Positions 3,965 through 48,454 of a stretch of DNA of 64,000 bases are shown here, in pieces. Position 1 is the first letter of the stretch; each line of letters starts with the position of its first letter. The DNA comes from Anaerolineales bacterium (GTDB lineage Bacteria > Chloroflexota > Anaerolineae > Anaerolineales > UBA4823): NCBI GenBank assembly GCA_025057645.1, contig JANXBJ010000003.1:111023-175022 (forward strand), given 5' to 3'. Under the pieces are notes generated by a model. It had not been told where the DNA came from and searched no databases. It saw nothing but the letters and a program-made list of their open reading frames with translations. The translations under genes were made by a program, and so were the position numbers.

Positions 3965-4069
3965 GCTCGGGTGGGTCCGGCGCGGCAGAAGCCTGCGAAC
4001 CCCGTCAGGTCCGAGAGGAAGCAGCGGTAAGGAGGTCCTTCTGGGTGCCGCCGGGGAGCCTGCCCGAGG
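3965..4069 (+). ncRNA. ffs: Small bacterial SRP RNA (4.5S)
   Basis: Long hairpin containing the helix-8 motif GTCAGGTCCGAGAGGAAGCAGC; upstream TTGACA(3927)-17 bp-TATATT(3950); T-run downstream. Confidence 0.93.
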
Positions 4070-8522: not shown

Positions 8523-11168
8523 ATGAAAGAACCGTTTCTCTTTTCTGAACTCCATTTCATCCACCAACTTTTTCAGGAAGGGGGCTTTGGGGGATCCTTT
8601 CCTGGGGAAGAGCGCGTAGCGAGGGCCTTCGATACCCTTGCAGATCTTGTTCTTGTCGTGGATAGAGAGGCAGTGATCCGTTATGCCAACCAGGCCGCTG
8701 CACGACGCTTTGCCAGAACGCCGGATCAGCTCGTGGGGAGAGAGTTGTTTGAGCTCTTTCCCTTTCCAAAGGCTAAGGCCCGCTGGCAAGTCGTCCTGAA
8801 AGCCGTGCATCGGTATGGGGTTTTCTCCTTCATCGATAGCCACAACAGTCGCTATGCTCTGACCCATGTCCTGCCTATTCACAGGGGTGCGGCAACCGAA
8901 AGTTATTACTTGCTCTATGCCCTCGAAGGGCATCAATCCGCTTCTGTTCCCCTCTTACCCGAATTGGTGACAGGAGTTCAACTCTCTCTCGGCGAAACTC
9001 CCCCAGCACCGCAGGAATTCCCTGGAAACTTTTCGTTAGAGCGCTCCTTGCGCATCTCTCTCGCTTTGGCCCATGCTGCAACTGGTGCCAGCCTTGCCGA
9101 GGACTTACAAGCAGCCTTGAACGTTGTGTGTGCTCAAGCCTGTCAAGCCCTGCAAGCTCCGGTTGCGGTGATCAGGCTATATAACCCCTATCAGGATCAA
9201 CTAGAGCTTGCCGGCTCCCATGGCCTGTCAGAGGAACATATGGCTAAGTATCATGCTCTCCCCTATGCTCCGCTCGCTGACTTAGCCTCGGAGACGGCAC
9301 CGAGAGTTTTCGTTGTTGACCTTGACCAGAGTCCTCCCACGCCTGCCGATGAACTGCCTTACCGCTCCGAACTCAGGGCCGCCGTGGTAGGCAATATCGT
9401 GCGTCGAGACCGCTTTTTAGGGGTCTTGGTTATCCTTGTTCCCAAATCCTGCTCAACTTTTGCGAAGGAGGACCTGCTCTTTGTCCAAGCTCTAGCAGAA
9501 CAAGCCTCGATCTCGATCGAACGCTTTCAGCTTATGGAAGTTCAAGAGAAACGCACTAGGGAACTGGAGAGCCTTGTTCGGATAGCGGTGGCGCTCAGAG
9601 GAGCGCTGAACAAGAAAGAGGCTATGATGGCTCTGGTGGATGCCCTAGATAAAGAGCATATGACTAAGTTGGCCGCAACCTACTTATTAGAGGGGGATCG
9701 TTATAAGTTGCTTTTGAGCCGCGGATGGGGTTGGACTCTGCCGACCCAGCTGACAGTGCCCGATCATCCTCTTTGGCGAGCCGGCAAGCCTCTCTTCTTT
9801 CGGCAGCTTACCGATTCCGAGAATTTGCTCCGAGCGGGGAACTATGAGTTTAGCCCTTTTGAGGAGGTATCCGGAGTCGCTATTCCAATGCATACTCCTT
9901 CGGCAACCGCCGGGTTGCTTCTGCTCGGTTTCTCGAGCCCGCTTCATCTATCCGATGAAGATCGACACCATCTTCACCTTCTTCAGGAAATTAGTGATGC
10001 AGCCCTGCACCGCGCCGATGCCCTTGAGCATCTCGAACAACTGGTCCTCGAGCGCACAAGGGAGCTTGCCATCCTCTATGACGTAACCACCCTCCTCAAT
10101 GCTCCGACAGACTTGAGAGAGGCAGTCGATCAGGTATTGGAGCATATTCTCTCCATAACTCAGGCGGATTTCGTGGCTGTTCATCTTTTTGACCCATCTC
10201 AAAATAGGTTATGCCTGTTTGCAGACAAGGGCTCCTCCCCCAGTGGAGATGGTCTCACTCTGGACGGACGGAGCGGGGAAGCTCCTTGGGACACGGTGTT
10301 TGCACAGAATGCTGCTCTTTTCCTTGTCTCGCTCGAGGATGAAATAACCGGGATAGCTCTCGGCAAGCGTGATAGCTACTATGGCTTGCCGATTCGCAGT
10401 CGCGGGGACGTGCTTGGTGTCCTCAGTCTTTTCTATAATAAAGAGCGGACCTTCTCCCTAAACGAGCAGGTGCTCCTCACGGCGATCGCCGATCAACTGG
10501 GACTGACCATTGAGCGTGCGAGGTTAATCGAACAAGGCGAGGAAATTGCTAAACTAGAGGAGAGACAACGCTTGGCGCGCGAATTGCACGATGCCCTGAC
10601 TCAATCCCTTTACAGCATGACCTTGTTGACCTCCGGTTACAAGCGCTCTCTAAACCATGCCACTCTAGAAGAAATTCACCGGTGGATGGATGAGCTGAAC
10701 GAGGTTGCACAGAACGCCCTTGCTGAATTGCGCCTGCTACTATATGAGCTTAGGCCAACAGCCTTGGAGCAGGATGGATTACATGGGGCGTTGAAGCGTC
10801 GTCTTGAGGCAGTGGAGAAGCGAGCGGGAATCCGCGCCGTGTTAGAAGTCCAAGGTAGTTTTCGCTTGCCCCCAGAAGATGAAGAACATTTCTACCGCAT
10901 TGCCCAAGAAGCGCTCAATAACGCCTTGCACCATGCTCACCATCGCTCGATCTTAGTGCGCATCAAGTCGACCCCGGCTCGTTTCGAGATGTTTATTGAA
11001 GATGATGGGAAGGGGTTTGACCTCAATCAGGTGGTTCAACAAAACCAATCCTCGGGGTTGACCAACATGTTTACGCGCGCCAGGCAGATTCGCGCCCAGC
11101 TTTCCATTAACTCCAGCCCTGGCCGGGGCACAACACTGCTCGTTACTAAGGATTATAGCCATGAGTGA
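8523..11168 (+). CDS. Cytoplasmic PAS / multi-GAF sensor histidine kinase (HisKA_3)
   Basis: EERQRLARELHDALTQ H-box, QEALNNALHH N-box, DDGKGFD; repeated GAF-like segments and no obvious transmembrane helix. Confidence 0.9.
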   Translation: MKEPFLFSELHFIHQLFQEGGFGGSFPGEERVARAFDTLADLVLVVDREAVIRYANQAAARRFARTPDQLVGRELFELFPFPKAKARWQVVLKAVHRYGVFSFIDSHNSRYALTHVLPIHRGAATESYYLLYALEGHQSASVPLLPELVTGVQLSLGETPPAPQEFPGNFSLERSLRISLALAHAATGASLAEDLQAALNVVCAQACQALQAPVAVIRLYNPYQDQLELAGSHGLSEEHMAKYHALPYAPLADLASETAPRVFVVDLDQSPPTPADELPYRSELRAAVVGNIVRRDRFLGVLVILVPKSCSTFAKEDLLFVQALAEQASISIERFQLMEVQEKRTRELESLVRIAVALRGALNKKEAMMALVDALDKEHMTKLAATYLLEGDRYKLLLSRGWGWTLPTQLTVPDHPLWRAGKPLFFRQLTDSENLLRAGNYEFSPFEEVSGVAIPMHTPSATAGLLLLGFSSPLHLSDEDRHHLHLLQEISDAALHRADALEHLEQLVLERTRELAILYDVTTLLNAPTDLREAVDQVLEHILSITQADFVAVHLFDPSQNRLCLFADKGSSPSGDGLTLDGRSGEAPWDTVFAQNAALFLVSLEDEITGIALGKRDSYYGLPIRSRGDVLGVLSLFYNKERTFSLNEQVLLTAIADQLGLTIERARLIEQGEEIAKLEERQRLARELHDALTQSLYSMTLLTSGYKRSLNHATLEEIHRWMDELNEVAQNALAELRLLLYELRPTALEQDGLHGALKRRLEAVEKRAGIRAVLEVQGSFRLPPEDEEHFYRIAQEALNNALHHAHHRSILVRIKSTPARFEMFIEDDGKGFDLNQVVQQNQSSGLTNMFTRARQIRAQLSINSSPGRGTTLLVTKDYSHE

Positions 11169-11835
11169 TCCGATCACCGTTTTGGTTGTCGACGACCATC
11201 CAATCGTCCGCAAAGGGCTGCGTACTCTGTTGCTGAGCGAGGCTGACATTCAGACGGTTTACGAGGCTGAGAATGGCCTTCAGGCCATTCAAATTTTGCA
11301 GCAACATCGGCCAACCGTTATCTTGATGGACTTGGTTATGTCGCCGATGAGTGGGGTGGAGGCGATTGCTCGCATCAAGGCGATTCAGCCCTCGGCGCGG
11401 ATTCTCGTTCTCACCGCCTATGCAGAGGATGATAAAGTCTTCCCGGCGATCAAAGCCGGCGCTTCAGGGTATGTGCTTAAGGATATTCCCCCTGAAGAGC
11501 TTATCCAAGCGATTCGCGATGTTGCAAACGGGCAGTGCTTCCTCCATCCAACCATTGCTGCGCGCTTGATGCGCGAGATCACCCAAGTCAGTATGCCCGT
11601 CGAGGACAGTGAACCGCTAACCGAGCGAGAAGTGGAAGTGCTGCGCTGGATTGCACGTGGATTGAGCAACCAGGAGATCGCTGCTCGACTGCATGTTTCA
11701 GAACGCACAATTACCACCCATATCAGTAATATTTTGGATAAACTTCACCTTGCCAATCGAACCCAAGCTACGCTTTACGCCTTGCGCAAGGGAATTGCCA
11801 GCCTTTACGAGGACGAAGACACCTTTTCTACGTAA
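11161..11835 (+). CDS. NarL/LuxR-family response regulator
   Basis: VVDDHPIVR receiver domain, LTEREVEVL...GLSNQEIA HTH; overlaps the kinase stop. Confidence 0.95.
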   Translation: MSDPITVLVVDDHPIVRKGLRTLLLSEADIQTVYEAENGLQAIQILQQHRPTVILMDLVMSPMSGVEAIARIKAIQPSARILVLTAYAEDDKVFPAIKAGASGYVLKDIPPEELIQAIRDVANGQCFLHPTIAARLMREITQVSMPVEDSEPLTEREVEVLRWIARGLSNQEIAARLHVSERTITTHISNILDKLHLANRTQATLYALRKGIASLYEDEDTFST

Positions 11836-11895: not shown

Positions 11896-12189
11896 GGTTT
11901 ACGAGTAGGATTTACAACAAAGCGGGGTTTCTAGAGTGCTCATCTAGAATGCTTCGCAGATCGCATTGGGGTGCTGATAGGGGAGCGATCTAGGCCGGTG
12001 GAGCGGCAAGACAGGGTGCCGCTCCATCAGCCTTAAAAGGGCCGCCCTGTTTCTCAGCCGAACTTCGGCACTCCGCCATACCGAGGACGCTTATCCGTTT
12101 CCAGTTCTCCTAGTACAGAGCGGGGAAAGTCGACCCTATACTTTGTTTCATTACTCGTGGTATACTTATAGCAAACCCCTGAGCTTGCT

Positions 12190-12435
12190 GAAAGACTGTG
12201 AAGAGGAAGAGTACCTGCAGCGCTGTCGGTACAGAGAGCGGTTGAAGCTGAGAAAGCCGCCCGAACGGTTGCAGGGAATGGGCCTCTGAGTTGCGCAGCG
12301 AACGATGGTGTAAGTAGCTGTCGCCGGTGGTGTCGCCGTTATCCGGACACGGGCATCCGAAGGCCGGTGGCCTGAAGCGATGCTCCGCGCCGTGAGGCTG
12401 GCTTGTTTCCCCGTCGGATCACCGGCGGGTTTTTG
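12190..12435 (+). promoter_or_regulatory. Trp-specific T-box leader with a non-canonical antiterminator
   Basis: Stem I with GA motif, AGTA, AGAGAG and GCTGAGA loops; specifier GAA-TGG-G (TGG at 12279-12281); stem II AGTA; CCGTTA; terminator CCCGTCGG-ATCA-CCGGCGGG-TTTTT. Promoter TGgTATACT at 12158-12166. No TGGNACC bulge is present. Confidence 0.8.
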
Positions 12436-12469
12436 ATTAAGCTTTGATCGGAATCGAGGAGGTTGAGCC

Positions 12470-12715
12470 ATGATGAGGGTCGAAATTGTTTATTGCGCTG
12501 TCTGACACTACACCGATCGCGCCATTGGTGCAATGGCAGAAATCTTGCGTGAATTCGAATCGGAAATCGAGTCTATTGCTCTGGTTCCTTCTGATGGAGG
12601 ACGGTTTGAGGTAAGCGTCAATGGAAAGCTGATCTATTCCAAGCTCCAGACCGGCCGTCACGTCAATCCTGGGGAGTTGCTCCAGCTCATTCGAACCTAT
12701 CGTAAGGAGGCTTAA
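12470..12715 (+). CDS. Rdx (SelW/SelT-like) selenoprotein, 81 aa, CxxU motif
   Basis: GAGGAGG RBS then MMRVEIVYCAV-U(TGA 12503)-HYTDRA..., in frame with the track ORF at 12533 that carries GGRFEVSVNGKLIYSK; SECIS-like hairpin at 12521-12537. Confidence 0.88.
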
Positions 12716-13704
12716 TGAGTACGAAGAAAGGACGCGTCTTTTCCGGAGCTCGACCGACCGGTCGACAACACTTGGGGAATTACCTAGGGGCTATCAGGAA
12801 TTACGTCGCCTTGCAGGACGAGTACGAGTGCATCTACTGCATTGTCGATCTTCACGCTCTGACCACGCTGGAGACCACCGAGGATCTGCGCCAAAACTGT
12901 TACGAAATGGCTTTAGATTTCCTGGCTGCCGGAATCCGGCCGGAGGAAACGATCGTCTTCATTCAATCCCAAGTGCCCCAAGTGACCGAATTGCACACGA
13001 TCCTTTCGATGGTGACACCCTTAGGGAAGCTAACTGATCTGCCGACCTTTAAGGAGAAGGCTCGTCAGCAGCCCCACAACGTCAATTATGGCCTGGTCGG
13101 TTATCCGGTCTTGATGACTGCGGATATCACCCTGTATAAGGCCAATGTGGTGCCGGTCGGCATCGACCAGGCCCCGCACTTGGAGTTCGCTCGAGAAGTG
13201 GTCCGCTCTTTCAATTACCGCTTCAAGACCAATGTGCTCATCGAGCCGGAAATGAGGAGTACCGAGGTGCCCAAGGTGCTCGGCATTGACGGTGTGCAGA
13301 AGATGAGCAAGAGTCTCAATAACCATATAGAACTGGCTGCTACACCCGAAGAGACTCTGCAAAGGGTGATGCAAATGGTAACCGATCCGCAACGTCAACG
13401 GCGCACCGATCCCGGTCGTCCTGAGGTGTGTAATGTCTTCACCTTTCACAAGGTCTTTTCGCCCCCCGAAATGGTAGCCGAGATTGACATAGAATGCCGC
13501 CGAGCGGGCATCGGCTGCGTGGAGTGCAAACAGCGCATGGCGGCTAATCTAAACCAGCACCTCGAACCCTTCCGGCAACGGCGCAGCGAATACGCACGCG
13601 ACCCCGACTATGTGTGGGACGTATTAAGGGAGGGACGAGAACGGGCAGCTAAGATCGCCCGTCAGACCATGATCGAAGTGCGCCAGGCGGTTGGGTTACC
13701 CTAA
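12715..13704 (+). CDS. trpS: Tryptophan--tRNA ligase
   Basis: SGARPTGRQHLGNY (HIGH), YPVLMTADI, KMSKS. Confidence 0.97.
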   Translation: MSTKKGRVFSGARPTGRQHLGNYLGAIRNYVALQDEYECIYCIVDLHALTTLETTEDLRQNCYEMALDFLAAGIRPEETIVFIQSQVPQVTELHTILSMVTPLGKLTDLPTFKEKARQQPHNVNYGLVGYPVLMTADITLYKANVVPVGIDQAPHLEFAREVVRSFNYRFKTNVLIEPEMRSTEVPKVLGIDGVQKMSKSLNNHIELAATPEETLQRVMQMVTDPQRQRRTDPGRPEVCNVFTFHKVFSPPEMVAEIDIECRRAGIGCVECKQRMAANLNQHLEPFRQRRSEYARDPDYVWDVLREGRERAAKIARQTMIEVRQAVGLP

Positions 13705-13730
13705 ACTTGGCCAAAGGTTAAGCTCTTTCT

Positions 13731-14168
13731 ATGCGCCTTGTCCTTCAGCGCGTTCGAAGAGGCAGCGTTTCCGTAGATGGAGAAAAGATTGCCGAAATTG
13801 GGCCGGGGTTGGTCATCCTTATCGGCGTGGGTCTGAACGATAGGGAGGAAACTGCGCGTGCTCTCGCCGAGAAAACGGCATATTTGCGCATCTTCGAAGA
13901 CCAAAACGGCAAAATGAATCTCTCCCTTTTGGACGTAGCGGGAGAAGCCCTTGTGGTTTCTCAATTCACCTTGTATGCAGATGCTCGGAAGGGGCGACGT
14001 CCTTCCTTTACCGATGCAGCTTTGCCCGAGCAGGCCAAACCGCTCATCGAATGTTTCGTTCGCCATCTTCAAGGATTAGGCGTGCCGACCCAATGTGGTC
14101 AATTCGGAGCCCATATGCTTGTTTCCATTGAAAATGACGGTCCGGTGACCATCCTTCTGGAGCAATGA
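13731..14168 (+). CDS. dtd: D-aminoacyl-tRNA deacylase
   Basis: VVSQFTL, KGRRPSF, NDGPVT. Confidence 0.96.
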   Translation: MRLVLQRVRRGSVSVDGEKIAEIGPGLVILIGVGLNDREETARALAEKTAYLRIFEDQNGKMNLSLLDVAGEALVVSQFTLYADARKGRRPSFTDAALPEQAKPLIECFVRHLQGLGVPTQCGQFGAHMLVSIENDGPVTILLEQ

Positions 14169-17003: not shown

Positions 17004-18065
17004 ATGAATGAGCAATATCCTTCCGGGAAGCAGATTCGATTGACAAGCCTATCCAGCTGTGCGGGTTGAGCATCCAAGCTGAGCGCAGAAGCGCTGGCGC
17101 AGGTGCTGCGCCCGATCCGAGCCATTTTTCAGGAGTCGCAGGAGCCGAGGTTGCTTGTGGGGCTGGACGAGCCAGATGATGCTGCCGTATGGCAGTTGGA
17201 CGAGGAGAAAGCCCTTGTCATAACGACAGACTTCTTTACCCCTGTAGTCGATGATCCTTACGATTACGGAGCGATCGCCGCGGCTAATTCTCTCTCCGAT
17301 GTGTATGCCATGGGGGGAAGGCCATTTCTGGCGCTAAATATCGCCGCTCTTCCCCCCGAGCTGCCCACAGAGACTCTCACCGAGATCATTCGAGGGGGAG
17401 CCGAAAAAGCCCGTGAAGCCGGTGTGGTTATCGCCGGAGGCCACACCATCCAAGATAAGGAGCCGAAATATGGCTTAGTAGCTATTGGTTTCGTTCACCC
17501 AAGAAACTTCCTGCGGAAGAGCGGCGCAAGTCCCGGAGATCAGCTTATCCTTACTAAACCCCTTGGCTTTGGTACCACCACCACCGCCCTAAAGCGTGGC
17601 TTGGTGTGCGAAGAACATATCGGCGAAGCCGTAGAATGGATGAAAAAGCTTAACCGCCAGGCGTCGGAGATCGCTCAACAGGTCGGGCTTACCACTGCCA
17701 CCGATATTACCGGTTACAGTCTGCTCGGTCACGCTTGGGAGATCGCCTCGCTCTCTGGGGTCGGCTTACGCCTGAATTTCGAGGCAATCCCGTTTATCCC
17801 AGGGGCCAAAGAGTATGCTGCGCAATTCATTTTCCCGGGCGGCGCCTTCGACAACCGCTCGTATTTTCAAGCCCATGTGCGCTTTGACGCCAAACTGAGC
17901 GAAGCCGAGCAAATGTTGCTCTTTGATCCCCAAACCAGCGGTGGATTGCTTTTTGCGGTCCCGCCTTCACGGCTGCGGGCTTTTGAACAAGCCGCACAAC
18001 AACTCAGTCAGCCCTACTGGATTATTGGGGAGGTAACTTCTAGCGAGATCATCGAAGTGATCTAG
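17004..18065 (+). CDS. selD: Selenide, water dikinase, selenocysteine-containing (353 aa)
   Basis: ATG 17004 gives MNEQYPSGKQIRLTSLSSCAG-U(TGA 17067)-ASKL, in frame with the track ORF at 17103 (DDAAV, TTDFFTPVVDDP, DPQTSGGLL); SECIS-like hairpin at 17082-17095. Confidence 0.93.
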
Positions 18066-44453: not shown

Positions 44454-44662
44454 GATTGCTCTCCTTTGTCTAAATTGGCCAGTGCTTGTATTATACACAA
44501 GAAAAGGAGCAGACCATGATAGATTAGAACCGTTTGTTCTCACCACCTTCAAGTTACGGAACGGCGCAGCCGATCCTGGACTGTACCGACTCTTGCTACA
44601 GACTTTGTCAAATTGTTGACCGATCTCCGAAAATATGGCATAATCTACATCAACGAACTCGC

Positions 44663-44962
44663 AAAAGCGATGATGGAAACGAGTACATCCGAGCGGCGCT
44701 GACAGCGAACCTGCGAACGGTGTGAGGCGGGCCAGCACGACGGATGGAACATCCTTCCGGAGCTGCAACCTGAAAGGCCGAGAGCAGAGGAGGCCGAGTA
44801 GGGAAGCCGGTGTCGTCCACCGTTATCGCGGACGAGTGGTTTGGAGTGCCCAAAGGGGCTTCAAAGACCACTGAGGAGTTGCCTGCAACAGCAGGAAACA
44901 GGGTGGTACCGCGGGAGATGTGCCATTTCCTCTCGTCCCTGGAGGGGCGAGAGTTTTTTTAT
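44663..44962 (+). promoter_or_regulatory. Ile-specific T-box riboswitch
   Basis: Specifier GAAC-ATC-C (ATC at 44751), CCGTTA, GGGTGGTACCGCG (44901-44913), terminator CTCTCGTCCCT / AGGGGCGAGAG-T7; promoter TTGACC-17-CATAAT. Confidence 0.93.
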
Positions 44963-48000: not shown

Positions 48001-48454
48001 TTTAGCAGAGATGGATGCGGCCAGGGTAGCAGCTTTGGTTCAGGCCGGGATGAAGGTTCCCCTCCAAGTGGATGGCCAAGTGGTGGAGTTGGAAGCCAAC
48101 GAAATCTTGGTGCAGACCAAACCGGCGGAGGGATTGGCCGTTGCTTTCGATAAATTGGCTACGGTAGCGGTCGACACGAACGTCACTCCGGAACTGCGTG
48201 CCGAAGGCCTTGCCCGTGAACTCGTGCGTCGCATTCAAGCCATGCGCAAGGAGGCGGGTTTCAACATTGAAGATCGCATTACCACCTACTATCAAGCCGA
48301 TGAAGCGCTGGCCGAAATCTTTCGCTCTTGGGGCGAGTATATTAAGGCAGAAACCCTCACGCTCGCTCTATGTCACGAAACCCCGCCTGCAGATAGCTAC
48401 CAGGAGACCCATCAAATCGATCAGCACCGGGTCGTCCTCGGGGTTAAGCGTTAG
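45008..48454 (+). CDS. ileS: Isoleucine--tRNA ligase (type 2-like)
   Basis: GGAGG RBS; DGPITANNPMGVHHGW, WTTTPWTL, GTGIVHIAP, divergent KMSKS (PMHKS); Ile T-box upstream. Confidence 0.93.
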   Translation: MPFREVPTKIDFPAQEREILEFWKRTQAFQKMRELHRGQPHWSFIDGPITANNPMGVHHGWGRTYKDLFQRFWTMRGRELRYQNGFDCQGLWVEVEVEKEMGFRTKRDIENYGLEKFVRACKARVLRYAAVQTEQSIRLGYWMDWDDPDQLRWLAEQLLEDPQRVITVQGPEGPVTDTVEQIVGRLGMPELGGSYFTFSNENNYMIWYFLKKCWEKGWLYHGADVMPWCPRCATGISQHEIVTDGYAELTHPSVTLRFPLRQSADLSSPPRRDPQSGLPEALLVWTTTPWTLTSNVAAAVGPDLTYVKVRQGEQVLYLSKGTMHMLRGEYEVLGELPGAAMEGWYYFGPFDDLPAAQQRGGLVPIEHLIRDIPLTAAEAHRVILWDEVGETEGTGIVHIAPGCGAEDFQLGKQHGLPIIAPLDDEGYFIEGFAWLSGMHVSKVATPIFEDLERKGLLYHVESYTHRYPTCWRCKEELIFRLVDEWFISMGEVYDKPREQLTPEEKARSLRYQIMDIVDRIRWIPEFGYAREMDWLRNMHDWMISKKRYWGLALPIWVCEQCGKYEVIGSEVELQERAVAGLDVFGRHTPHRPYIDAVKLGCPACGGLMNRIPDVGNPWLDAGIVPFSTLRYRSDPDYWRKWYPAHWISESFPGQFRNWFYSLLAMATVIAGEPPFLENFGYATLLAEDGRPMHKSWGNAIEFNEAADKMGVDVMRWLYCNHKPENDLLFGYHRGDEARRRFLIPLWNVYAFLATYARLDGWEPTFEFDPAYPEGATPRSENLLDRWILTRLNQVTPVVTHALENSDTYTATLALEALLDDLSNWYVRRSRRRFWKSEQDQDKRMAYATLYHVVVKMIRLLAPFVPFITEAIYQNLVRSVRPNAYESVHHTSWPLTDESAVDQALEQQMTLARQIASLGLSARNSAGLKVRQPLAKVFVYAGKTKTLLPELIEIIKDELNVKEFEFVEKAEQLVTYQILPDSKLLGPRFGAQFPKVRAALAEMDAARVAALVQAGMKVPLQVDGQVVELEANEILVQTKPAEGLAVAFDKLATVAVDTNVTPELRAEGLARELVRRIQAMRKEAGFNIEDRITTYYQADEALAEIFRSWGEYIKAETLTLALCHETPPADSYQETHQIDQHRVVLGVKR

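Follow-up and report, generated by a model that had tools for sequence, protein, structure and literature searches.

A selenoprotein gene as the putative first cistron of a T-box-controlled trpS-dtd operon in Anaerolineales

Why should a selenoprotein gene stand between a tRNA-Trp-specific T-box leader and the gene for tryptophanyl-tRNA synthetase (TrpRS)? We examined this question in a 64,000-nucleotide stretch of the genome of an Anaerolineales bacterium (contig JANXBJ010000003.1 of assembly GCA_025057645.1), hereafter the window, in whose coordinates all positions are given (+ strand unless stated). Here an extended -10 element, a Trp T-box leader, a gene of the SelW-like/Rdx family with an in-frame TGA, trpS and dtd follow one another head to tail (12158-14168, +). 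A sequence-only reading of this DNA had already pointed to the T-box with its TGG specifier, to an 81-residue CxxU Rdx gene, to the TAATG in which the Rdx stop overlaps the trpS start (12713-12717) and to trpS itself, all of which are found at those places, and it had gone on to propose that a single transcript could couple the charging of tRNA-Trp to selenium status. The answer that we favour, with moderate confidence, is a different one: the region would be one operon in which an ordinary selenoprotein gene has been recruited as the first cistron of a T-box-controlled trpS-dtd unit, where it is co-expressed with the synthetase and does not gate it.

The argument starts with the identity of the first gene. 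With the TGA at 12503-12505 read as selenocysteine (U), the open reading frame (ORF) at 12470-12715 (+) gives a protein of 81 residues, MMRVEIVYCAVUHYTDRA..., which ends at the TAA at 12713-12715 and is preceded by what reads as a Shine-Dalgarno (SD) sequence, GAGGAGG (12456-12462, +), with GGAGG-like sites at the same place in most relatives. This protein scores 78.8 bits against the Pfam family Rdx (PF10262; cut-off 22.6), in a match that spans residues 3-75 and runs across the TGA, and 63.4 bits against TIGR02174 (CXXU_selWTH; cut-off 34.2); it is not a member of the Campylobacter-type SelT/W/H equivalog NF041051, where its 75 bits stay below the cut-off of 88. Relatives were taken from a sample of 61 genomes of the same order, the named ones among them Anaerolineales, and from a class-wide sample of 201 genomes (their loci and genomes carry the labels L and G of this analysis). 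An Rdx homologue occurs in 45 of the 61 order genomes, and the in-frame TGA at the CxxU position is kept in every one of the 45; within the motif YCAVU (residues 8-12), Y8, C9 and U12 are invariant. Class-wide, 78 of the 201 genomes have a homologue and 77 of the 78 carry the TGA, so that the choice between selenocysteine and cysteine at this codon, which the sequence-only reading had raised, falls almost uniformly on selenocysteine. The sole class-sample homologue that lacks the in-frame TGA (G133:C65:14854-15081) may be a cysteine form. Such near-universal TGA fits the scarcity of cysteine homologues in the accessible part of PMC1794560, according to which SelW-like proteins have very few or none.

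A hairpin of the form GCCAUU-GGUGC-AAUGGC lies at 12521-12537 (+), its first base 16 nt past the UGA, and has the properties of a bacterial selenocysteine insertion sequence (SECIS). In an alignment of the 45 genes (A1), 91.9% of its cells are paired, as compared to 14-58% when the pairing is slid along the alignment as a control, and 49 cells hold double changes against 17.3 in shuffled alignments, none of 500 shuffles reaching 49; this support covers the conserved 6-bp upper stem only. Folding the single sequence after the UGA returned a different hairpin (z -0.05), which the covariation-supported one supersedes. The genome, 95.75% complete, also encodes the full selenocysteine machinery, with selB, selA, selD and tRNA-Sec scoring 374.9, 551.7, 369.4 and 75.5 bits, the tRNA having an 8-bp acceptor stem. 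Because the TGA is conserved, the SECIS covaries and the machinery is complete, we conclude from these comparisons that Rdx genuinely is a selenoprotein gene and carries a SECIS of the bacterial type. SelB and tRNA-Sec would insert selenocysteine at codon 12, the UGA, with the downstream hairpin as their guide.

Were the TGA a true stop, the locus would instead hold an 11-codon leader ORF and a separate ORF of 60 residues (12533-12715), and no selenoprotein. This is what ORF calling with translation table 11 suggests, as it lists the 60-residue remnant alone. Yet the codons ahead of the TGA (..YCxV) show in-frame conservation throughout the 45 homologues, and together with the Pfam match across the TGA, the SECIS covariation and the complete machinery the data already contradict a true stop, to which we give next to no credence. 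As a separate observation, selD (17005-18065, +) is itself a selenoprotein gene, with its ATG at 17005 and a TGA at 17068-17070 (..SSCAGU..), and is started by the ORF caller at 17103. The 2.8 kb that separate it from dtd upstream hold a Na+/H+ exchanger gene as well as genes for a P-II-like and an SPFH/Band 7 protein.

The second gene, trpS (12715-13704, +), encodes 329 residues and is followed after 26 nt by dtd (13731-14168, +), whose product of 145 residues is assigned to the D-aminoacyl-tRNA deacylases by PF02580 (182.4 bits) and by the equivalog TIGR00256 (167.2 bits; cut-off 101.5). The order of Rdx and trpS, whose conservation the sequence-only reading had left to a survey, is kept in relatives: trpS directly follows Rdx in 38 of the 45 order loci. 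It lies more than 1 kb away in two, in one of which it is a divergent enzyme on the other strand, and is missing from the remaining five, where dtd directly follows Rdx. A search of named genomes (labelled Anaerolineales, Anaerolineaceae, Anaerolinea, Thermanaerothrix, Bellilinea and Levilinea) with the TrpRS of the window gave a similar picture, although this set overlaps the order sample and is not independent of it: of 80 loci, 72 have Rdx, stop codon included, upstream of trpS, and dtd lies downstream of trpS in 71. Outside the order the arrangement was not found. Among 24 Rdx loci from elsewhere in the class, four of them short, not one has trpS or dtd within ~1.5 kb, and the neighbours, which change from family to family, show no common partner: glycosyltransferases, a TrmI-type tRNA methyltransferase (2 loci), radical SAM proteins and metallo-beta-lactamase-fold proteins, as well as three proteins that belong to no Pfam family. 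The two TrmI/GCD14-type cases, in which the methyltransferase gene follows Rdx (L088 and L091), come from a single family (f64) of another order. In an Rdx tree the trpS-linked genes group together (7 changes, as compared to 23.6 in shuffles), which is compatible with a single origin, the tree itself, built on 81 columns, being poorly resolved. Rdx would have entered the trpS-dtd unit as its first cistron, probably once and at an early stage of the order, and been inherited there afterwards. Loss of the selenocysteine trait, considered as the cause of its absence from some genomes, does not account for it, as selA is present in 11 of the 16 Rdx-less genomes of the order.

Several loci are of interest for the history of TrpRS in the group. 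In one genome (G059, locus L104) the gene immediately ahead of dtd encodes a divergent TrpRS with 35% identity and no Cys motif, as if the enzyme had been replaced in place. Two TrpRS genes each, one orthologous and one divergent, occur in three genomes (G037, G045 and G060; L099/L109, L097/L108 and L098/L107), and in L039 (G031) trpS gives a match in two overlapping pieces (residues 4-116 and 103-329), suggesting a frameshift or an assembly error.

What controls the three genes? An extended -10 promoter-like element, TGGTATACT, lies at 12158-12166 (+) and is our candidate for the operon promoter, from which the transcript would start. The motif TGNTATACT occurs three times in the window against 0.41 expected, and most related loci have this motif as well, either in the corresponding position ahead of the leader or immediately ahead of Rdx; a generic sigma-70 scan called no + strand promoter in the region of 12158-12166. 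Between Rdx and trpS, a scan of the window sequence found no promoter motif and no strong terminator. Downstream of the -10 element follows the T-box leader (12189-12434, +), which Rfam model RF00230 matches at 12189-12357 (+) with 73.9 bits (E 6e-16), below its gathering score of 93, in an alignment that omits 67 model positions corresponding to the antiterminator part. The leaders of related loci align well, and we also used a covariance model of Stem I, R1, built from 18 of them; it matches 12194-12299 at 107.2 bits, a score obtained by construction, since the leader of the window is among the seeds. RNAalifold predicts 23 Stem I pairs across the 18 leaders, 17 of them with compensatory changes. 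The GA/K-turn motif and the distal AGAGA/loop elements of a T-box Stem I are present, GAAGAGGAAGAGUA and ACAGAGAGC being conserved; the GA motif is in the 5' strand of the specifier loop, and GAA-UGG, then a purine or C, is in the 3' strand. The specifier, UGG at 12279-12281 (GAA-UGG-G in the window), is the same in all 18 seed leaders and in all 29 further R1 matches.

After Stem I (12194-12299) and the Stem II/III region comes the T-box sequence GUGAGGCUGGCU (12392-12403, +), inside which UGGC (12399-12402) does not vary among 21 leaders and complements the terminal GCCA of the one tRNA-Trp that the genome has (discriminator G). It is followed by a terminator-like hairpin (12410-12429, +) with the T-run TTTTT (12430-12434); the hairpin is 93.5% paired in relatives and nearly invariant, so that covariation is uninformative here, and the fold of the whole leader alone is not significant (z -1.37). 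The leader would end in this intrinsic terminator unless uncharged tRNA-Trp binds, pairing through its anticodon with the specifier UGG and through its GCCA end with UGGC. The canonical antiterminator consists of a helix A1, a 7-nt bulge and a helix A2, of which no A2 was seen. As a non-canonical alternative, we infer that GUGAGGC (12392-12398) pairs with GGAUCAC (12416-12422), which would use up the loop of the terminator hairpin together with the last part of its 5' arm and leave UGGC in the enclosed loop; the six-pair helix is paired in 93.7% of cells across 21 leaders. Two other candidates were rejected: a local GUGAG/CUCAC hairpin around UGGC, which cannot form in the window or in several of the relatives and in which UGG would be buried, and a GGC/GUC pairing, which breaks in the 10 leaders with GUGAA. 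Taken together, tRNA-dependent read-through of the leader is what we would predict. The genome has seven T-box matches, two of which pass the Rfam gathering score. One further match in the window, at 44661-44943 (+; 86.8 bits, below the gathering score), has an AUC (Ile) specifier and the canonical AGGGUGGUACCGCG, and precedes a gene for an IleRS-like protein, the end of which is at 48454.

If the leader stands in front of Rdx, does it also belong to it? Pattern searches undercounted T-boxes, and we used R1 counts instead; an alignment of all upstream regions with MAFFT was unusable because about half of the loci have no leader. R1 places a leader ahead of Rdx in no more than 20 of the 44 loci that could be evaluated (L025 was left out for too little upstream sequence), and most of the leader-less Rdx loci carry TGnTATACT 16-78 nt before Rdx. 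The three-part order that the sequence-only reading had put forward holds for its Rdx-trpS half, and its T-box half is found in the minority just given. Leaders occur without Rdx as well: R1 matches stand immediately ahead of trpS in five of the eight relatives that lack Rdx and have an orthologous TrpRS (L092-L096, L094 being cut by the contig end), before a divergent trpS in L100, L101 and L102, and before a relocated divergent trpS in L110 and L113, two genomes whose Rdx-dtd loci have no leader. None of the five Rdx-dtd loci that lost trpS has an R1 match, and in the named set 29 of the 80 loci have one, four of them without Rdx; the record labelled Anaerolinea thermophila (L130) has leader and Rdx together. 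Because the leader is found before trpS where Rdx is missing or trpS has moved, and is absent from the Rdx-dtd loci, the T-box tracks trpS, and from this distribution it seems to belong to trpS and not to Rdx. Two loci stand out on their own account. L022 (G003), from the genus of the window, has no T-box before Rdx, unlike the other evaluable genomes of that genus, and its promoter motif lies 201 nt upstream; L028 (G011) has a degenerate T-box before Rdx, which keeps promoter, terminator and the 5' portion of Stem I but has lost the specifier region and T-box sequence by deletion, and gives no R1 match.

With one promoter-like motif and the T-box terminator ahead of Rdx, trpS and dtd, the expected effect of uncharged tRNA-Trp in this genome is joint induction of TrpRS and the selenoprotein. 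The suggestion of the sequence-only reading that tryptophan starvation might induce a redox selenoprotein thus agrees with the predicted architecture, and in T-box-bearing species Rdx would be induced, along with TrpRS, as charging of tRNA-Trp falls. The same reading had also offered the reverse dependence, in which the UGA in the first cistron makes trpS answer to selenium, through termination, lost coupling or polarity, and so links the charging of tRNA-Trp to selenium status. A single leader, the overlapping TAATG and a UGA early in the first cistron would all lend themselves to such a device. Stops in the context UGAC are generally the leakiest, and this context is found in 39 of the 45 order loci, including the window. 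Moreover, the Rdx stop and the trpS start overlap or abut (within 2 nt) in 24 of the 38 loci, the window among them. The comparison nevertheless speaks against selenium control on several counts. The SD sequence of trpS, AAGGAGG (12704-12710, +), which the sequence-only reading had itself entered as a caveat, lies within the 3' end of Rdx, 4 nt before the ATG, and an SD-like site at most 20 nt from the inferred trpS start is present in 33 of the 38 loci, while the spacing from Rdx stop to trpS start varies between -8 and +211 nt, with 8 of the 38 loci at 29 nt or more. No stable fold that would hide the trpS SD was found at the junction (z -0.38), and the stretch left untranslated after an aborted UGA would measure just ~210 nt. 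The T-box, as described above, is present in fewer than half of the loci, and T-box-trpS-dtd units that have no Rdx exist in close relatives that still have selA. A selenium/tryptophan coupling device is thus not supported by the comparison, and we regard it as distinctly unlikely. Of the proposed link between tRNA charging and selenium status, then, the shared architecture stands; the part in which UGA termination lowers trpS expression runs against the SD sites, the lack of an unusual fold at the junction and the seven Rdx-less relatives described below, which keep the same TrpRS. In the reading that we prefer, trpS would be translated from its own ribosome-binding site, with an output independent of UGA decoding.

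The constant position of Rdx raises the question of whether it works with its neighbours. The TrpRS of the window (TIGR00233, 295.9 bits; cut-off 176.75) carries the motif C-x21-C-x6-C-x2-C in its anticodon-binding domain, and all four cysteines align with the cluster ligands of the Thermotoga maritima enzyme (PDB 2g36; E 1.5e-75). The accessible part of PMC2954223 gives the motif of [4Fe-4S] TrpRS as C-x(21-24)-C-x6-C-x2-C in the anticodon-binding domain, and by motif the enzyme of the window is a predicted member of this type. Among the full-length TrpRS encoded next to Rdx, 35 of 36 have C-x(20-22)-C-x6-C-x2-C, as do those of L039 and L043; that of L032 has Asp in place of the fourth cysteine. 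In the named set the four cysteines are found in 79 of the 80 loci.

One could thus imagine that Rdx associates with the [4Fe-4S] TrpRS and maintains the four ligand cysteines or the cluster in a reduced or repaired state, which would explain why it is encoded just upstream and co-induced. The near-constant motif in the adjacent synthetases and the alignment with the 2g36 ligands are in keeping with this, and so is a crude association in the order sample, in which the ratio of genomes with to genomes lacking a four-cysteine TrpRS is 37:7 when Rdx is present and 7:8 when it is absent, phylogeny being ignored. The named relatives, which we take from their names to be anaerobes, would also suit an enzyme of this kind. 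The association fails in both directions, however. Seven relatives have the same four-cysteine TrpRS followed by dtd, and selA, but no Rdx homologue was found in them; conversely, in the five genomes in which Rdx with its TGA stands beside dtd, the only TrpRS found is divergent and lacks the Cys motif. To this can be added the Asp of L032 and the fact that, in the loci examined, Rdx never adjoins trpS outside the order. Because the link between Rdx and the four-cysteine TrpRS breaks both ways, we hold a dedicated partnership to be rather unlikely, and a role for Rdx as an operon passenger or accessory to be the likelier one.

Could Rdx instead serve Dtd, or the tRNA quality-control side of the operon, and not TrpRS? 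It stays directly upstream of dtd in the five genomes from which trpS has left, dtd belongs to the unit in most of the named loci, and in one other family Rdx sits beside the TrmI-type tRNA methyltransferase gene at the two loci mentioned. Against this, the Rdx-less relatives keep trpS-dtd, dtd is near none of the 24 Rdx loci outside the order, and we know of no redox step in Dtd catalysis. We consider this very unlikely. Our preferred guess is an accessory redox role of Rdx for an oxygen-sensitive Fe-S TrpRS or for the translation apparatus, helpful but dispensable. A stronger proposal would make the SelW-like selenoprotein a functional partner of the Fe-S TrpRS and/or Dtd, a selenol-based protector or re-activator of the cluster-ligand cysteines near the anticodon-binding site; it seems to us doubtful. 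If it were true, the T-box-bearing Anaerolineales would answer falling tRNA-Trp charging with the synthetase and its redox guardian together, and the locus would give the SelW-like proteins of bacteria their first assigned function and T-box regulons their first selenoprotein.

On this evidence we return to a recruited and co-expressed Rdx as the most plausible account. From the putative promoter and past the leader, three cistrons would follow on one transcript: the SelW-like/Rdx selenoprotein, the [4Fe-4S]-type TrpRS and the D-aminoacyl-tRNA deacylase. A number of points weigh against this account and should be set beside it. Adjacency kept across ~18 families suggests selection and not inertia, which sits uneasily with Rdx as a mere passenger. 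Given that the junction is no wider than 2 nt in so many loci, some translational coupling in this genome is also conceivable. With a score under the gathering threshold, the leader is missed by a default Rfam scan, and the non-canonical antiterminator draws on one covarying pair (GC in 10 leaders, AU in 5, unpaired in 6), with a G-G mismatch in the genus of the window itself. The relatives are phylogenetically non-independent, and many are incomplete metagenome-assembled genomes. Finally, the stretch was found in four DNA sequencing runs of hot-springs metagenomes from two studies, one of which may be its source, and in no RNA run.

Two features of the window lie apart from these subjects. 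A strong GC-rich inverted repeat (11988-12037), situated between a LuxR-type response regulator gene (11161-11835) and the promoter motif of the operon, surfaced only as chance matches to microRNA models and may be a terminator of the upstream two-component genes. At 3969-4068 (+), a bacterial small SRP RNA was found (63.4 bits).

The locus bears on several wider points. SelW-like/Rdx proteins are widespread, nearly always contain selenocysteine and have no known function, so that an order-wide place beside an Fe-S aminoacyl-tRNA synthetase (aaRS) and a tRNA proofreading enzyme is a rare contextual clue, and one that can be followed up in organisms with cultured members (Anaerolinea, Thermanaerothrix and Levilinea). 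For annotation, the case illustrates two blind spots: gene callers reduce Rdx to its 60-residue ORF, so that the first cistron of the operon is routinely missed, and the T-box is a variant that curated models score below threshold. The idea of a selenium supply that gates TrpRS synthesis would be the more exciting one and is unsupported by the comparative data. The sequence-only reading had known of no comparable arrangement, and a search of the full text of articles agrees in that it found no description of this layout and none of a T-box regulon or T-box-controlled transcript that includes a selenoprotein gene.

How does the locus compare with known systems? The SECIS presumably resembles that of Escherichia coli fdhF, a coding-region hairpin soon after the UGA with a G/U apical loop (GGUGC, GGUCU) and a UGA followed by CAC; it differs in that only the conserved 6-bp upper stem is supported here, and SelB binding is predicted. 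With T-box-controlled aaRS operons (RF00230; the trpS and tyrS leaders of Bacillota) the leader shares Stem I with its GA motif, a specifier loop with codon and following base, a Stem III/F-box CCGUUA, a UGGN that matches the 3' end of the tRNA and an intrinsic terminator, with the gene of the cognate aaRS downstream. In contrast to those operons, the first cistron here is a selenoprotein gene and not an aaRS gene, and the T-box sequence reads GAGGCUGGCU, whereas the ileS leader of the same window has AGGGUGGUACCGCG. The Rdx protein is like other bacterial SelW-like proteins (PF10262/TIGR02174) in its length of ~80 residues, in its CxxU after the first strand and in having selenocysteine nearly always; it differs in its fixed place before trpS-dtd in one order, gene context being a subject that the accessible part of PMC1794560 does not mention. 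The TrpRS aligns with that of T. maritima (2g36; PMC2954223) in all four cluster-ligand cysteines, with an x21 spacing that falls within the range published in the accessible part of that article, which mentions no neighbouring Rdx gene; the cluster of the enzyme studied here is predicted from the motif. Each part of the locus thus belongs to a known family, the T-box leader with an apparently non-canonical 3' half, and what the literature search did not turn up is their combination, a selenoprotein as the first cistron of a T-box-controlled trpS-dtd unit across Anaerolineales.

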